From positions 90,960 through 119,985 of IMG/VR virus record IMGVR_UViG_3300033069_001022: a stretch of 29,026 nucleotides of DNA. One strand, written 5' to 3'. Source of the stretch: a virus. Lineage: Duplodnaviria; Heunggongvirae; Uroviricota; Caudoviricetes. Positions within the stretch are counted from its first letter, which is position 1. Each line of letters opens with the position of its first letter. The notes under the pieces are model-generated. The model had not been told where the DNA came from. It did not search any database and worked only from the letters and a program-made list of their open reading frames with translations. Positions 17,940-28,851 of this stretch are shown piece by piece. A program made the translations under genes and the position numbers.

Positions 17940-18241
17940 TTATAACATCACAAGGAGATCTTAATGTTGGAGGAGGGGTAATTTATGGTCCTCCAGTAAA
18001 CAATCAAGGATATATTACAGGTATGTCCTTTACAAACCTATCTTCTTTTGTGTTGGAAGTGTATTTATACCGAAAAGTACCAAATTCTAAAAAATTACTA
18101 TATAAATTAACACTTGATGCAGGTGATATAGTAGAGGATGATACAGAATATGTATTAGATTATGGAGATTACCTATGGGCAAAGTCTTCAGTAACTGGTA
18201 CTCAATTTGTAATTATGGGAAGTGTATCAAGAACAGTATGA
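17936..18241 (+). CDS. Small structural protein (101 aa), probable beta-sandwich
   Basis: ATGA-coupled to both neighbours; alternating hydrophobic beta pattern; tail module context. Confidence 0.55.
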   Translation: MIITSQGDLNVGGGVIYGPPVNNQGYITGMSFTNLSSFVLEVYLYRKVPNSKKLLYKLTLDAGDIVEDDTEYVLDYGDYLWAKSSVTGTQFVIMGSVSRTV

Positions 18242-19179
18242 TAAAAGTATTTACATATCAAGGTAATTTAAAACAGACTAGTTCAGGAGGTTTATTTGCT
18301 TGTTCTTTATTATCTACATGTACAACAGATAATCTAGCAGAAGGGTCTAATTTATATTTTACAGACAGTAGGGCTGTAACAGCTTTAACTGGGGAGAATA
18401 TATCTATTTTTACCAATGATTCTGGATATTTAACCTCCTTATCCGGAGCTGTTTTAACAACCAGAAGTTTAACTATAAATGGTGTATCTTTTGATTTATC
18501 TGCTGATAGAACTTGGACCATAAGTACTGTAACAGGTAATGCAGGAACTGCAACTGCTTTACAGACAGCTAGAAGGATAAATAGTGTATTATTTGATGGT
18601 ACATCAGATATAAATACTGATGAGAAAATACTTACCTATCAAGCTTTGGGGTCAACAATACTATCCCAAAATGTAAATGGTGGACTAGGAGATGCTACAG
18701 GAACATACACAATGGCTGATAATCGTGTATGTTTTATGGCTACATATTTAAAGAAAGCAGGAACTATTACAGGAATAAAATGGAAACAAGCTACTCAAGG
18801 TAGCTATACAGCAGATGGTTATAATGGAGTAGGTCTATATACCTATTCTGGAGGAACATTAACACTAGTAGCTTCATCAACTGATGATGGTAATATATGG
18901 AAGGCAACTACAGGAACAATATCAAGTAAAGCTTTTTCAAGTACTTATGCTGCCAGTGCAGGTTTACACTTTATAGGGGTACTTTATTGTAACTCTTCAC
19001 AATCAACAGCTCCTGTTATAGGAGCTATACTTGGTGCAACAGGTACTAATATAGTTAACGATTTTACGAATTCTGCAAAATTAAATGGTCATGTTGTAGG
19101 ACAGACTTCTTTACCAGCAAGTATAGCCATGAGTAGTATAACAGCTTTTTTTAATGAGCCTTGGGCCGCCACTTACTAA
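18238..19179 (+). CDS. Tail fibre protein (~313 aa)
   Basis: Likely start ATG 18238 overlaps the upstream TGA. Fibre shaft motifs TTDNLAEGSNLYFTDSRA, LTINGVSFDLSADRTW and GNAGTATALQTARRINSVLFDGTSDI, then a C-terminal globular domain. Confidence 0.75.
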   Translation: MIKVFTYQGNLKQTSSGGLFACSLLSTCTTDNLAEGSNLYFTDSRAVTALTGENISIFTNDSGYLTSLSGAVLTTRSLTINGVSFDLSADRTWTISTVTGNAGTATALQTARRINSVLFDGTSDINTDEKILTYQALGSTILSQNVNGGLGDATGTYTMADNRVCFMATYLKKAGTITGIKWKQATQGSYTADGYNGVGLYTYSGGTLTLVASSTDDGNIWKATTGTISSKAFSSTYAASAGLHFIGVLYCNSSQSTAPVIGAILGATGTNIVNDFTNSAKLNGHVVGQTSLPASIAMSSITAFFNEPWAATY

Positions 19180-19777: not shown

Positions 19778-20163
19778 AGCCAAATGTAAAAAAATTCTTT
19801 TATGATTTAATAGACTCTGATAATGAAAAATCTTCAAAAAGATTTATAACATTAGTGGCTATGCTTCATTTTATTATAGGATCTTTTTTAATACTTGGAT
19901 TGTTTACATTTGTTGCCATTCACCCTACTAAAGGAGATATTGAGTTTTTAAAGATAATGAATGATATACTAAAAGTTATACTAGAGTATGATTTTTTAAT
20001 AATTGTAGCAGGTTTAGGAATGATTACCAGTGAAAATTTAGGTAAGATACTTGTTAAAAAATTCACCAAAGGATATGATGGTGGTGGATGGGGTTCATGG
20101 GGAAATGATGAAGAAAAAAATATTGGCTCACAAAAAACACCCAAAGAAGATGGCGAACTTTAG
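19774..20163 (+). CDS. Putative holin/antiholin (129 aa, 2 TM)
   Basis: SSKR followed by two hydrophobic helices and a charged C-terminal tail; overlaps the endolysin start. Confidence 0.55.
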   Translation: MKPNVKKFFYDLIDSDNEKSSKRFITLVAMLHFIIGSFLILGLFTFVAIHPTKGDIEFLKIMNDILKVILEYDFLIIVAGLGMITSENLGKILVKKFTKGYDGGGWGSWGNDEEKNIGSQKTPKEDGEL

Positions 20164-20674
20164 TTTATACTTTCCTATTTTATTAAAATTTGAAGGTGGT
20201 TATGTTAATAACCCAAAAGATAATGGTGGTCCTACTAATCTAGGAGTTACGTTAAAAGAGTGGTTATCAAGTGGTTATGATAAAGACGGTGATGGAGATA
20301 TAGATGTTCAGGATCTGAAAAGAATTACTCCAAAAGATGCTGAGAAAATAGCAAAATTGAAATACTGGGATAAAGTCAGGGGGGATGAAATTAATTCCCA
20401 AAGTGTAGCAGAGTTTTTATTTGATTGGGCTTATATGTCTGGACCAGGTACTGCAATAAGAAAACTTCAGGAAGTTTTAGAAATTACAATTGATGGTATT
20501 ATAGGCAATAAAACAATAGGAGCTATAAACTCCACAAATCCTGTCACTTTATTTAACTTATTAAAAGCCAGAAGAGAAAAGTTTTTCAGAGATATTGTTA
20601 ATAATAACCCCTCTCAGAAAGTATTTTTAAAAGGTTGGTTAAATAGAAATAATTTATTTGTATTTCACGGATAA
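20150..20674 (+). CDS. Endolysin, glycoside hydrolase family 108 with peptidoglycan-binding C-terminus
   Basis: Likely start ATG 20150 (MANF). EGGYVNNPKDNGGPTNLGVT is the GH108 motif; EF-hand-like DKDGDGDIDVQD insert; DGIIGNKT and FLKGWLNR C-terminal motifs. Confidence 0.9.
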   Translation: MANFSLYFPILLKFEGGYVNNPKDNGGPTNLGVTLKEWLSSGYDKDGDGDIDVQDLKRITPKDAEKIAKLKYWDKVRGDEINSQSVAEFLFDWAYMSGPGTAIRKLQEVLEITIDGIIGNKTIGAINSTNPVTLFNLLKARREKFFRDIVNNNPSQKVFLKGWLNRNNLFVFHG

Positions 20675-20686
20675 GTTGTATATTTG
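20657..20686 (+). promoter_or_regulatory. Bacteroidetes housekeeping-sigma-type promoter for the GIY-YIG gene
   Basis: TTTG (20657-20660), 18 nt, TATATTTG (20679-20686) matches -33 TTTG / -7 TAnnTTTG; the ATG follows 4 nt later. Confidence 0.5.
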
Positions 20687-20690
20687 TAAT

Positions 20691-21377
20691 ATGAAAGAAC
20701 TACATATCTTGGGAATCTATAAAATAACAAGCCCTTCCGGAAAAGTTTATATTGGTCAGAGTGCAAATATACTAAAGAGATTTAGATATTATAAATATTA
20801 TAGTGCTTACCAACAACCCAAATTACATAGTTCATTATTGAAATATGGTTGGGAAACACACATATTTGAAGTAATACATGAGTTACCTTTTGATGTTTCT
20901 CAAGAAGTTTTAGATAAATATGAAAATTTATATATAGATTTATATAAAAGTTGTAATTTAGATTTACTAAATATAAGAGGTGGGGGAAGTAGAGGAAAAG
21001 TGTCAGAAGACACAAAAAAGAAATTAAGCATAGCCCATACGGGCAAAATACTTAGTGAAGCAACAAAAAAGAAAATTAGTGAAAGTAGAAAAGGTAAATG
21101 TTTAGGAGAAAATAATCATAGGTATGGGAAACCCGTTCCAAATCAAGACCATAATAAAGGTAAGAAACAGTCTAAAGAATTAATAGACAAAAGAATGAAA
21201 AAAAGTAGAATACCGATACTTCAATATGATTTAGAAGATAATTTTATAAAAGAATGGATTTGTGCAGAAGAAGTATTTAGACATTTAAAAATATGGCCCC
21301 AGAGTATAAGAATATGTTGTAGAAATAAAGGTCCTTTGTGGAGTACTGGAGGTTTTAAATGGAAAAACAAAAACTAA
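20691..21377 (+). CDS. Free-standing GIY-YIG homing endonuclease with NUMOD3 and NUMOD1-like motifs
   Basis: GIYKITSPSGKVYIGQS; SEDTKKKLSIAHTGK and SEATKKKISESRKGK repeats; C-terminal PILQYDL...CC...GGFKWK. Confidence 0.9.
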   Translation: MKELHILGIYKITSPSGKVYIGQSANILKRFRYYKYYSAYQQPKLHSSLLKYGWETHIFEVIHELPFDVSQEVLDKYENLYIDLYKSCNLDLLNIRGGGSRGKVSEDTKKKLSIAHTGKILSEATKKKISESRKGKCLGENNHRYGKPVPNQDHNKGKKQSKELIDKRMKKSRIPILQYDLEDNFIKEWICAEEVFRHLKIWPQSIRICCRNKGPLWSTGGFKWKNKN

Positions 21378-21379
21378 AT

Positions 21380-22132
21380 ATGAAGGAATTATCAATAATC
21401 GGAATTTGCGCTACTAAGAACCGGGTTTCTCACTTAAAGAAAGTGATAAGGTGCTTTATAGAGCAAGATTATACTGGTCCATCTACATTATTTATATACA
21501 ATAATGCAAAAGAAGAGCAACAGTTAGGGGATTTTGAACTTCCTCCAAATAAAACTATCATTTTAATTAACCACAGTACTAAATTAGGAGAGGACAGAGA
21601 TTATAATAATCTTGGTGAGATATACAATGATATTTTAGAGTTCATTCCCTTAGCTGATTTAGTGGTACATATGGATGATGATGATACCTATCTTCCTGAT
21701 CATTTTTCCAAAGGATTAGAAGGTTATAAAAGAGGTGGTTTATTAGCTTACAAACCTGAAAAATCTTGGTTTAAGACACATGATAAACTTTCTCTTGAGA
21801 AAAATGTACTAGAACCTTCTATATTTGTAAATTATGATCATTTAAAATCAGAAGGTTATTTTCCTAGAAATGTGGATTTACATCATAAATGGGTACAACC
21901 TTTAATAGATAAGGAACAAATATATGTAGATCCAAAAGGGAAAGCTACTTTTATATATGATTGGAGTGGTACAATACCTGTTTGGAAAACATCTGGAGAT
22001 CCTCATAATCCAAACAATTTTAATAACTACACAGCAAATTCAACAGATAAAGGTACTGGTATATTATTACCTATTAGTAAAGAAGACTTATTAAAATATG
22101 AACCTCAATATAATCTGTTGTACAGAAAATAA
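21380..22132 (+). CDS. GT-A fold glycosyltransferase (GT2-like)
   Basis: N-terminal I...TKNR...L...I..F..QDY and acidic VVHMDDDDTYLP motif; likely start ATG 21380. Confidence 0.8.
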   Translation: MKELSIIGICATKNRVSHLKKVIRCFIEQDYTGPSTLFIYNNAKEEQQLGDFELPPNKTIILINHSTKLGEDRDYNNLGEIYNDILEFIPLADLVVHMDDDDTYLPDHFSKGLEGYKRGGLLAYKPEKSWFKTHDKLSLEKNVLEPSIFVNYDHLKSEGYFPRNVDLHHKWVQPLIDKEQIYVDPKGKATFIYDWSGTIPVWKTSGDPHNPNNFNNYTANSTDKGTGILLPISKEDLLKYEPQYNLLYRK

Positions 22133-23186
22133 ATTAAGATTTGCCTGGGAAACCAGGGTACTTTTAACTTCTTTAAAAGAGTTTGATTATTCAGATAAAG
22201 CAAGAGTACTTATATACAAATCTCAAGAAGGTACTCATACAGAGTGGGGTACTTTAGAACATGATTTTCCTGAAGCTCAGTTTTTCTATTATGATGATAA
22301 AAACATAATGAAGACTGCCAGAGCATTTGGTTATCCTCCTTTGTGCAGGTTATATTGTTTACAAAAACATTGGGAACAATTTCCACATTTACAACAAGAG
22401 GCTATATTTTATTGTGATACAGATATAGTATTTACTAAGAAATTTGATTTTACACCCTATTTAGAAGACTCTATTAATTATTTATCCTGGACTGGTAATA
22501 TAGAAAGAACAGATAATTACTTATGGCAACCTTATTTGGACTCAAAATTAGATAAGGTGAATCCTTTAAAAATAGAAAAATTTAAAAAGATAGATATAGT
22601 ATCTAGATTAGGAAATATCTGTGGAATTAACAGAGAAATTATAACTAAGAACAATGAACATACCGGAGGAGCACAATATTTGTTAAAAAATATAACCAAG
22701 CAATTCTGGATTGACTGTTTTAACACCTGTTGTGAAATAAAAATGTATCTGGCTGATATTAACCAGATATATATGCAAGGTACAACAGCTCAGGAAAGAG
22801 AAAATAATGGATTTCAATCCTGGTGTGCAGATATGTGGTGTGTATTGTATAATCTCTGGAAAACTTCAGAAACAAGGTGTCCCAAAGAATTTGACTTTGC
22901 ATGGAGTACAGATAAAATAGAAAGATTAAATGAGGTATTTGTCCTACATAATGCAGGAGTTACTTCTGATGAAAAAATAGCAGTTGCTAACCAAAGAGAT
23001 GAAAATGGAGGGAGAATAACTTTAGAGGGACCATTATTCTTTAAAGGTAATTCTAAGTATTTAGTATCTACACCGCAACAAGATATAGAAAAATTATTGG
23101 AAATATATAACAATCCAATTAATAAACAGTTTTGTAACAATTTTTATATAAAAACAATTTTAAAATCCACAAAAAATGAGTATTGA
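22098..23186 (+). CDS. GT-A fold glycosyltransferase-like protein (362 aa)
   Basis: IFYCDTDIVF (DxD), GGAQYLLKN, WCADMWCVLYNLW and HNAG; overlaps both neighbours. Confidence 0.65.
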   Translation: MNLNIICCTENKLRFAWETRVLLTSLKEFDYSDKARVLIYKSQEGTHTEWGTLEHDFPEAQFFYYDDKNIMKTARAFGYPPLCRLYCLQKHWEQFPHLQQEAIFYCDTDIVFTKKFDFTPYLEDSINYLSWTGNIERTDNYLWQPYLDSKLDKVNPLKIEKFKKIDIVSRLGNICGINREIITKNNEHTGGAQYLLKNITKQFWIDCFNTCCEIKMYLADINQIYMQGTTAQERENNGFQSWCADMWCVLYNLWKTSETRCPKEFDFAWSTDKIERLNEVFVLHNAGVTSDEKIAVANQRDENGGRITLEGPLFFKGNSKYLVSTPQQDIEKLLEIYNNPINKQFCNNFYIKTILKSTKNEY

Positions 23187-23637
23187 TAAAAGCATGAAGT
23201 ATTTCACAAGATTAGACTACCAAGGTAGAAGGATTGCTGGTAGTGGAGTTATCCGTAGAAAAAAACCATCTATAGGCAGATGGGTAGAAGAAACTGAAGC
23301 AACTTGTTGTTTCCCATTCACATCTTTAACCCAAACACCTGCTGATACTTATATATCAGACATTACATTGACTATTCTGTGTGATGATGTAGAGGTTATG
23401 GTAACTACTATACTAGCTAGTTCTACTGATATAGACACATTAGTAGCTGAGTTAAATAGTAATCTAGCTTATCTGGGTACTTTTAGTACTGATGGAACAG
23501 ATGTTATCTTACATCTTCACCAGGATATTGCAGATTCAATGTGTGCTGGGGAGTTGACAATGGCAGTAACTGGTACTCCTACGACTACCACTACAACCAC
23601 TACTACAAGTACTACAACCACAACGGCCACACCTTGA
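23176..23637 (+). CDS. Putative virion/decoration protein (153 aa) with C-terminal poly-Thr tail
   Basis: Ends TGTPTTTTTTTTTSTTTTTATP; start overlaps the GT stop; no signal peptide or TM. Confidence 0.65.
   Translation: MSIDKSMKYFTRLDYQGRRIAGSGVIRRKKPSIGRWVEETEATCCFPFTSLTQTPADTYISDITLTILCDDVEVMVTTILASSTDIDTLVAELNSNLAYLGTFSTDGTDVILHLHQDIADSMCAGELTMAVTGTPTTTTTTTTTSTTTTTATP
23569..23634 (+). repeat. Low-complexity Thr-codon tract (17 Thr and 1 Ser in 22 residues)
   Basis: All four ACN codons are mixed (acg act acc act aca acc ...), so it is a protein-level repeat rather than a pure microsatellite. Confidence 0.85.
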
Positions 23638-23641
23638 TGAT

Positions 23642-23698
23642 TTAACAAATATTTAACAAGGTACTACTTGTAGTTGTCGTTTTTATTATATATCTTTG
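23642..23698 (+). promoter_or_regulatory. TTAACAA direct-repeat box plus Bacteroidetes-type promoter upstream of the HNH-like gene
   Basis: TTAACAA-ATAT-TTAACAA (23642-23659); TTG (23668-23670), 20 nt, TATCTTTG (23691-23698). Confidence 0.5.
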
Positions 23699-23715
23699 TG
23701 TTTAAATATGTAAAG

Positions 23716-24339
23716 ATGTGTAATAGAGTATGTAAAGTGTGTAGCATTAATAAAGCATTAGAGTTTTTTCAGTATCATTCAGCTACAGGATATTACAGTA
23801 AAACTTGTAAAGATTGTTCTAATAAGCTTAGAAGACAGAATTTTGCTAATAAAGCCACTTTAGAAGGAAGAATTTTAAATAAACTATCTACCCTAATAAG
23901 ATATAAAACATGTAATAAATGTAAAGAAGAAAAAGAGGTAAATAGGAATAATTTTACAAGACATAATAGTAGATATAGTAATATTTGTAGAGTTTGTAAC
24001 GAAACTGAAAAACTAAAAAACAAACTTATAAAGGACAATGAGAAAGTTAATGATAGAACTATTGTTAAACACTCAACATATAGAGCTAATGATTTTAGAA
24101 AAGGATTACTATTTCAACTAACAAAAAAATTTCTAGAAAAAGCTTTGAATAGTGAATGTGTATATTGTGGATTTCCTGCTAATGGTGTAGATAGATTAGA
24201 TAATAATATTGGGCATACTGATGAAAATTGTGTACCTTGCTGTACTCAATGTAATCATGCTAGAAATAATTATTTTACAGTAGAAGAAATGAAAATAATA
24301 GGAAATACTATAAGGGAAATTAAACTTAAAAGAAAGTGA
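23716..24339 (+). CDS. HNH-like (His-Me finger) homing endonuclease with N-terminal CxxC zinc ribbons
   Basis: Likely start ATG 23716. Several CxxC pairs; CVYCG...GVDRLDNNIGHTDENCVPCCTQCN..R. Confidence 0.75.
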   Translation: MCNRVCKVCSINKALEFFQYHSATGYYSKTCKDCSNKLRRQNFANKATLEGRILNKLSTLIRYKTCNKCKEEKEVNRNNFTRHNSRYSNICRVCNETEKLKNKLIKDNEKVNDRTIVKHSTYRANDFRKGLLFQLTKKFLEKALNSECVYCGFPANGVDRLDNNIGHTDENCVPCCTQCNHARNNYFTVEEMKIIGNTIREIKLKRK

Positions 24340-28302: not shown

Positions 28303-28851
28303 CTAATCTACAGTACAAGCTGCTACTTTTTTACACATATCAATAAAATATTGATTATCAAATTTATTCTTCATAATATTAATATCTTTATGTACCCATT
28401 GTACATTATCTAATGTATAATCTTTACTACTATCTATTCTATCTAAAGAAGCTGTATAAGACCCTTTACTTTTATTAGGGAATATCAAAATAATTCCTGT
28501 TAAAGCACATTTTCTTTCTTGTTTTAAAAATAGATTCCATGCTTCTTCAATAGTAATCGTTACTTTTTTTATTCTTCTATTACCTTTTACTCCACTAGCA
28601 CTTCTAATTATTTTATCATACCAGAAAGCTGAAGATATTTCCCCTATTCCTGCCCACAAGGAATGTTTAGCTCCGAAACTTCTTTCACACCCACAATGAG
28701 TTATCCTACCTGCTCTTAAATGAGTTGTAGATACTATATGAATATTTCCACAATCACATAAGCATTTGTATCTAGTATAATATCCATTCTTATCCTTTTC
28801 TTTATTTAAAGCTAGTAATTTACCAAATTTATTACCAATTTCTGTCTTCAT
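28303..28851 (-). CDS. HNH-like homing endonuclease (182 aa)
   Basis: N-terminal GNKFGKL...Y.C.CDCGN...L..G....CGC; C-terminal CALTG...ASLDRIDSSKDY..DNVQWVHK.IN.MK. Confidence 0.8.
   Translation of the reverse strand: MKTEIGNKFGKLLALNKEKDKNGYYTRYKCLCDCGNIHIVSTTHLRAGRITHCGCERSFGAKHSLWAGIGEISSAFWYDKIIRSASGVKGNRRIKKVTITIEEAWNLFLKQERKCALTGIILIFPNKSKGSYTASLDRIDSSKDYTLDNVQWVHKDINIMKNKFDNQYFIDMCKKVAACTVD

Follow-up and report, generated by a model that had tools for sequence, protein, structure and literature searches.

Which molecule receives the sugar when a phage encodes two predicted glycosyltransferases (GTs) next to a protein that ends in a run of threonines? This question is raised by three genes, open reading frames (ORFs) 1, 2 and 3, at positions 21380-23637 of the window analysed here, a stretch of 29,026 nucleotides that constitutes the last 29 kb of a complete phage record of 119,985 bp (IMG/VR record IMGVR_UViG_3300033069_001022, positions 90,960 to 119,985). 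The predicted folds, the conserved motifs, the gene linkage and the distribution of threonine-rich tracts point to a phage-encoded cytoplasmic module for tag-directed O-glycosylation of virion-associated proteins, a reading to which a rough probability of 0.7 can be given. The phage is crAss-like (Crassvirales): its genome encodes a crAss-type major capsid protein (PF23898 Crass_capsid, E 5.4e-26, 91.5 bits against a cut-off of 27; L093:4536-6086), together with a portal protein of phrog_6547 (E 3e-93). The block and the parts of ORF3 are laid out as follows.

21380-22132, + strand: ORF1, predicted GT2-type glycosyltransferase of 250 residues (257 residues from the ATG at 21359)
22098-23186, + strand: ORF2, predicted GT-A glycosyltransferase of 362 residues
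23176-23637, + strand: ORF3, poly-Thr-tailed protein of 153 residues
23176-23316, + strand: N-terminal domain of ORF3, residues 1-47, ending with Cys44-Cys45 (from the profile and the AlphaFold2 (AF2) model)
23317-23574, + strand: C-terminal alpha/beta sandwich of ORF3, residues 48-133 (from the AF2 model)
23575-23637, + strand: poly-Thr tail of ORF3, TPT9ST5ATP, and stop codon (read from the sequence)

The genes overlap by 35 nt (ORF1 and ORF2, 22098-22132) and by 11 nt (ORF2 and ORF3, 23176-23186), just as an earlier note on this DNA had described, and inspection by eye showed neither a signal peptide nor a long hydrophobic stretch in any of the three products.

Poly-threonine tracts accompany ORF2 homologues

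A total of 83 loci with an ORF2 homologue were compared, mostly IMG/VR contigs with capsid proteins at least 70% identical to that of the present phage. A gene of the ORF3 family is found in 81 of them, usually as 1-4 copies directly downstream, and a poly-Thr ORF starts within 3 kb downstream of the ORF2 homologue in 65 (70 of the 83 when slight overlaps are counted). Poly-Thr ORFs occur at 0.43 per kb close to the GT, against 0.07 per kb in the remaining sequence. The enzyme gene itself is present in 13 of 15 long relatives of the phage and in all eight relatives that are at least 90% complete. When loci were collected through ORF1 instead, 9 of 14 had ORF2 within about 5 kb and eight of these nine hold poly-Thr ORFs, which in seven loci lie on proteins outside the ORF3 family; because such unrelated poly-Thr proteins follow ORF2 there, the link is to the Thr tract and not to one particular carrier. 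The five most distant ORF1 homologues have neither ORF2 nor a poly-Thr tract nearby, save two short mixed Ser/Thr stretches. The three genes had been presented in the earlier note as one coupled set, and from this comparison the tight link between ORF2 and poly-Thr stands, but not the idea of a fixed unit, since ORF1 is strong in only 2 of the 15 long relatives and most full-length ORF3 relatives are untailed.

The same pairing is seen far from the crAss-like phages. A tblastn search with ORF2 matched 77 cultured phages, and in all eight of those examined for tracts, which belong to distant lineages, poly-Thr tracts lie beside the GT on capsid/head, tail, tail-tube or unannotated proteins.

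phiFL1A: 331-residue gp45 after the scaffold gene (unannotated) and major tail protein gp50
phiCTP1: 132-residue gp11, annotated 'major head protein'
VPE25: major tail protein
R3.3: unannotated protein of 305 residues, encoded just before the GT
Semele: gene annotated 'major tail protein'
CHPC971: two unannotated proteins (682 and 245 residues) upstream of the GT
Staphylococcus phage RQ1: major tail protein and a small protein after it
Chryseobacterium phage MA9V-3: two unannotated upstream proteins

In the siphoviruses the GT sits between the tail-tube gene and the tail chaperones. GT homologues commonly lacking a Ser/Thr-rich neighbour, the pattern that the earlier note had named as speaking against its own proposal, are thus not what is found for ORF2 (65-70 of the 83 loci and the eight cultured phages have one). 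Runs of seven Thr codons are numerous in GT-positive relatives, on the structural strand only and with reversed-pattern controls near zero, whereas the GT-less crAss-like phages phi14:2 and crAss001 contain no such run on either strand. One complete relative that carries the GT (record G003) has no Thr7 run; it was considered as an exception to the pairing and dropped as such, given that a 381-residue structural protein of this genome ends in a mixed Ser/Thr tail.

Inside the genome under study, long Ser/Thr (S/T) tracts occur in only four real genes, which are ORF3 and three genes of the structural module, located before the window and 3-7 genes after the crAss-type capsid gene.

G000:C1 63900-65039 (L093:7901-9040): 379-residue protein with a C-terminal S/T tail
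G000:C1 65746-66336 (L093:9747-10337): 196-residue protein with an internal S/T tract
G000:C1 67431-68996 (L093:11432-12997): 521-residue protein with a C-terminal S/T tail

None of the three has an informative family match. Orthologues of the 379-residue protein at about 40% identity keep a Thr-rich tail of different sequence, and the one in G003 likewise retains an S/T tail; the 379-residue protein gave no tblastn match among cultured phages and nothing usable in the Protein Atlas. These three proteins are probably the main acceptors of the proposed glycosylation. ORF3, singled out as the substrate in the earlier note, remains a likely acceptor but not the sole one, and is probably a small fibre or decoration among several modified proteins.

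This distribution bears on the possibility that the target of the GTs lies in the host, in its surface glycans or elsewhere (for example in superinfection exclusion or receptor masking), with the Thr-rich proteins serving as unglycosylated linkers or fibres. Such an activity would explain neither why GT-less crAss-like phages are free of Thr tracts nor why, wherever a GT occurs, the tracts lie on carriers as unrelated as capsid, tail-tube and fibre proteins. GTs directed at O-antigen or teichoic acids are familiar from other phages, Thr/Pro-rich linkers work sugar-free in many proteins, and tract-free ORF3 relatives still neighbour the GT; serotype conversion, however, employs membrane proteins and lipid carriers and is typical of temperate phages, whereas ORF1 and ORF2 look soluble and the phage, a crAss-like one, shows no integrase in the window. 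A host target is considered unlikely.

ORF2, the core GT-A enzyme

At the level of sequence, ORF2 is a member of phrog_4417 (E 1e-33), a family of unknown function; it has no Pfam match, and its profile gave only chance matches against the PDB. The CDTD motif pointed out in the earlier note is present, with D107 and D109 unchanged in all 67 sequences compared, the most distant at 37% identity; H284 is likewise invariant in this set. The AF2 model built with the 67 relatives (pLDDT, the predicted local distance difference test, of 96.4) retrieved 227 PDB chains in Foldseek at E up to 1e-3, and the 50 chains listed are all glycosyltransferases, mostly of known GT-A families. The best matches among solved structures are GT15, GT8 glycogenin, GT6 and XXYLT1 enzymes (E 4e-6 to 1e-4, probability 1.0), while against the AFDB Swiss-Prot set the top matches are SGT1 (5e-10) and HPAT1-3 (to 3e-7), with template modelling (TM) scores of 0.48-0.57 over residues 2-361. 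The model thus has a Rossmann-like core and a DxD motif, and ORF2 is on this basis a predicted GT-A glycosyltransferase; it looks soluble. The identification of both enzymes as glycosyltransferases in the earlier note is borne out with a GT-A assignment for each, reached through the model and the invariant DxD for ORF2 and through a profile match for ORF1.

The nearest predicted folds, SGT1 (peptidyl-serine alpha-galactosyltransferase, GT96) and HPAT1-3 (hydroxyproline O-arabinosyltransferases, GT95), prime O-glycans on repetitive peptides rich in hydroxy amino acids (Ser/Hyp-rich repeats). They differ from ORF2 in that they are Golgi-membrane enzymes of plants or algae whose targets are Ser or Hyp in extensins, with 12-14% identity to the phage protein, and the likeness to GT95 and GT96 is one of predicted fold and does not establish family membership. 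Glycogenin (GT8), Ktr4/Mnt (GT15), XXYLT1 and GT6 enzymes have the GT-A core and the DxD metal site in common with the ORF2 model, and glycogenin O-glycosylates protein, as is proposed for ORF2. The solved GT-A enzymes superpose with TM scores of 0.3-0.44 at 7-14% identity, and ORF2 adds helical and beta-hairpin elements after residue 200.

Two uncharacterised Swiss-Prot entries of Bacillus subtilis, YfnD and YfnF, also match the ORF2 model over their full length and may be cellular relatives of the family. In another locus (L053:3829-5184) a single ORF of 451 residues begins with ~300 residues from the start of an ORF2 homologue and continues into an ORF3-like N-domain and C-domain; it may be a genuine fusion, or else an artefact of assembly or a frameshift in this 6-kb contig.

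ORF1, an accessory GT2-type enzyme

ORF1 has an ATG at 21359, but its relatives begin at the second ATG, at 21380, from which residues are counted here. The MDDDD motif reported in the earlier note is found as HMDDDD, and D100-D102 are invariant in 61 sequences. The protein itself has no Pfam match at E up to 0.1 and does not reach the curated cut-off of PF00535, a family with no match at E up to 0.1 across the whole genome; PHROGs gave no match, a tblastn search of cultured-phage records gave none either, and single-sequence PDB searches were empty or returned noise. The profile built from the 61 relatives, in turn, matched SpsA of Bacillus subtilis (PDB 1h7l; E 1.4e-4, 24.5 bits, positions 3-146), with the DDD of ORF1 aligned to the TDD of SpsA, and PF00535 is matched by 27 of the 61 relatives (best E 2e-9). 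These profile data indicate that ORF1 is a divergent GT2-type (GT-A) glycosyltransferase. The likeness to SpsA (GT2, PDB 1h7l/1qg8) covers the nucleotide-binding half with its DxD motif; the match is weak, the C-terminal 100 residues of ORF1 are unmatched, and the substrate of SpsA is itself poorly defined. Judged by its occurrence among the relatives, ORF1 appears to be a lineage-specific, accessory second GT of the module.

In one relative (L001:8411-8926) a 171-residue gene with faint methyltransferase matches is inserted between the ORF1 and ORF2 homologues.

ORF3 and its modular family

ORF3 ends with TGTPT9ST5ATP, and its 16 tail threonines use all four ACN codons (ACT six times, ACA five, ACC three and ACG two). 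In close relatives the tract is kept despite in-frame changes of length and synonymous substitutions, and the serine codons are AGT or TCA. The selection on the Thr peptide that had been proposed from the codon mix agrees with these synonymous changes, and since the tract persists through in-frame indels, selection would act on the peptide rather than on a simple DNA repeat. This points to a Thr tract maintained at the protein level. The tail is a candidate O-glycan acceptor.

In the AF2 model (pLDDT 90 for the whole protein) the N-terminal domain consists of three short strands, and Cys44 and Cys45 are invariant in 82 sequences. A word-based search recovered only five ORF3 relatives, four of them with a Thr tail, but an exhaustive profile search revealed 489 cluster representatives that share the N-terminal domain in four layouts. 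The first combines the 47-residue N-domain ending in Cys-Cys with an 85-residue domain and is mostly untailed; in the second the N-domain is followed directly by (Thr7-x-A-P)n repeats and nothing more (58-100 residues); in the third a Thr spacer links the N-domain to a variable domain that is Cys-rich or large; and the fourth consists of tandem N-domains. Among the mini-protein relatives the tract is strikingly regular at many loci (for example L070:11024-11227, L034:11100-11342, L062:4600-4845): exact seven-Thr units are separated by three residues such as AAP, VAP or TAP, and some paralogues have (TS)n stretches in place of the Thr7 units. Phage fibres usually combine a constant N-terminus with a distal part that varies. 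Two family members carry Peptidase_S74 (PF13884) at the C-terminus (P0371, 31.2 bits; L065:7531-7941, 25 bits; cut-off 22), an intramolecular chaperone typical of trimeric tail fibres; this evidence concerns the family and not ORF3, in which PF13884 was not found. Other members carry BspA-type leucine-rich repeat (LRR_5), DUF285, PKD, Fib_succ_major or PQQ domains. The N-domain is read as an anchor or recognition handle, a module common to a large family of phage proteins.

ORF3 has no match in Pfam or PHROGs, nor by tblastn among cultured-phage records, and as a single sequence it retrieved nothing beyond noise from the PDB. The earlier note had pictured it as a capsid or tail decoration protein; fold comparisons (Foldseek against the PDB, VIA-align against 48,161 chains, and BFVD) yield weak matches only (Z up to 5.7, or E 2e-4 to unnamed phage proteins), in which the C-domain resembles surface or insertion domains of GbpA, FliD and phage sheath and tail-tip proteins. 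An assignment to a crAss auxiliary-capsid cluster (Protein Atlas, by-features score 0.87) was treated as noise, all scores being below 0.9. The predicted ORF2-ORF3 complex scored 0.00, which is evidence neither way.

The invariant cysteines raise a different possibility, namely that ORF2 modifies the N-terminal Cys-Cys domain (S- or O-glycosylation, glycocin-like) or docks on it, the ORF3 family being released or non-virion peptides. A single enzyme gene with 1-4 small genes arrayed in tandem behind it, their products conserved at the N-terminus and hypervariable at the C-terminus, does recall a cluster for ribosomally synthesised and post-translationally modified peptides (RiPPs), and the apparent GT-ORF3 fusion in L053 would suit it. 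It ranks low because members of the family are fused to large adhesin domains (up to 1292 residues) and to Peptidase_S74, which point to trimeric virion fibres; moreover, in Firmicutes phages and in the loci found through ORF1 the Thr tracts that accompany the GT are borne by proteins without the N-domain, and there is no adjacent protease, transporter or immunity gene. We regard it as improbable, to about the same degree as a host target.

In one relative (L002:8108-9103) a 331-residue PTL_trimer (PF26696) protein is inserted between the ORF2 and ORF3 homologues.

Proposed mechanism

In the preferred reading, tag-directed O-glycosylation of virion proteins, ORF2 would recognise Thr-rich tags and add the first sugar to the Thr hydroxyls. 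The tags would be C-terminal tails or internal linkers, here those of ORF3 and of the three structural-module proteins near the major capsid gene. ORF1 would most likely add a further sugar, or alternatively use a different donor. Members of the ORF3 family, in which the 47-residue Cys-Cys handle leads into a Thr spacer, a variable distal domain or both, would act as small virion-attached fibres or decorations, and the Thr segment would become a stiff, protease-resistant, mucin-like glycan brush. We infer the transfer reaction and the sugar, and likewise the division of labour into priming and extension, the placement of ORF3 on the virion and a biological role in shielding or adhesion, these last three having been suggested in the earlier note.

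Several points weigh against this scheme. Poly-Thr can act as a plain flexible linker. GT-A folds are generic and the likeness of ORF2 to SGT1 and the HPAT enzymes is modest (TM about 0.5, 12-14% identity), so the type of acceptor is not readable from the fold. A Thr tract is absent from many full-length ORF3 relatives that neighbour an ORF2 homologue (for example in L002, L006, L008 and L010), and the adjacency could therefore reflect the N-terminal domain and not the tract. Two complete relatives are devoid of ORF1, which in the present phage falls below every Pfam threshold. The negative controls are few (two genomes and five loci).

Least probable of the readings is the glycosylation of phage DNA bases by both GTs (T4-type or 5-hydroxymethylpyrimidine-directed) as a defence against restriction, with an unrelated poly-Thr neighbour: although phage GTs are best known for DNA modification, as noted in PMC12619734, and the block adjoins the replication arm, beside MazG, UvsX-like recombinase and ribonucleotide reductase genes on the opposite strand, such a role is disfavoured because the complete genome has no thymidylate-synthase-like gene (deoxynucleotide hydroxymethylase; other base-modification routes were not searched) and because the ORF2 homologues of Firmicutes siphoviruses lie inside head/tail morphogenesis modules, immediately behind the gene for the major tail or capsid protein, and it leaves the tight pairing of GT and poly-Thr across lineages unexplained.

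Tag-directed O-glycosylation can also be formulated more broadly, and here we see the chances as evenly balanced. The whole of phrog_4417 would then be a tag-directed protein O-glycosyltransferase that acts in many phage lineages on any virion protein with a poly-Thr tail or linker, giving mucin-like coats to aquatic crAss-like phages of Bacteroidota as well as to phages of Firmicutes; the N-domain mini-proteins would serve as glycan-brush fibres stalked by the glycosylated Thr spacer, and enzymes and tags would be unrelated to those of mycobacteriophages.

Comparison with known glycosylation systems

To our knowledge, a few mycobacteriophages are the only phages whose particles have been shown by experiment to be glycosylated; in these, the sugars alter antibody recognition. 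Virion O-glycosylation is described for Che8, Corndog and Myrna (Freeman et al. 2023, Cell Host Microbe 31:1216, as cited in PMC12619734), where phage GTs are proposed to act in the cytoplasm on the C-termini of virion subunits and so to produce a glycan coat. In the Firmicutes phages with ORF2, capsid and tail-tube proteins are the carriers of the tags. The enzymes and tags differ from those of Che8: the ORF1 and ORF2 profiles gave no match at E up to 1 in the Che8 genome, while the same ORF2 search matches other records, and the Che8 capsid and tail proteins end with ...NKTGS and ...YSDGS, without a poly-Thr tract. In contrast to the mycobacteriophages, the present system has a long Thr-run tag, Bacteroidota-type and Firmicutes hosts, and dedicated small proteins that bear the tag.

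Another parallel, drawn from general knowledge, is offered by the serine-rich repeat adhesins of streptococci and staphylococci, whose long Ser/Thr-rich repeats are modified by the cytoplasmic enzymes GtfA/GtfB encoded beside the substrate. Dedicated GTs next to a fibre-like, Ser/Thr-rich substrate are found there as here, but GtfA/GtfB are GT-B enzymes and work with an accessory Sec export system. Our search of the literature on poly-Thr, virion or crAss-like glycosylation found no paper describing an enzyme-tag module of this kind.

If the proposal holds, a sugar coat would be a common trait of the virions of aquatic crAss-like phages, in which ORF2 is a core gene, and would extend to many phages of enterococci, lactobacilli, lactococci, staphylococci and clostridia. 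This would bear on phage therapy (immune recognition, stability) and on the biology of dairy phages, and structural work on virions would be affected as well, with tails invisible or misread in cryo-electron microscopy maps. A short transferable acceptor tag and a single soluble enzyme would be useful for glyco-engineering. Cultured carriers exist (phiFL1A, VPE25, Chryseobacterium phage MA9V-3), which makes the idea directly testable.

Genomic surroundings

The rest of the window contains the following features.

up to 11885, + strand: two giant proteins
18175-19179, + strand: tail-fibre-like gene
after 19154, + strand: two small hydrophobic proteins
20051-20674, + strand: GH108 endolysin
20658-21377, + strand: GIY-YIG/NUMOD3 homing endonuclease
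23674-24339, + strand: HNH/endonuclease VII-like gene
28303-28851, - strand: second HNH gene, near the end of the window

The position of the block after tail and lysis genes, part of the original description, is confirmed by the tail-fibre-like gene, the two hydrophobic proteins and the GH108 endolysin that precede it on the same strand. The segment 19154-20674 can be recognised as a lysis cassette, in which two holin- or spanin-like proteins (assigned by eye) overlap the endolysin, itself provided with a PG_binding_3 domain. A blastn search with the three-gene block gave no match among cultured-phage records. The module is bracketed by the GIY-YIG/NUMOD3 gene on one side and the HNH/endonuclease VII-like gene on the other, and the latter is an insertion in the present phage, because in the relative L004 the genes for the 94- and 100-residue proteins directly follow ORF3.

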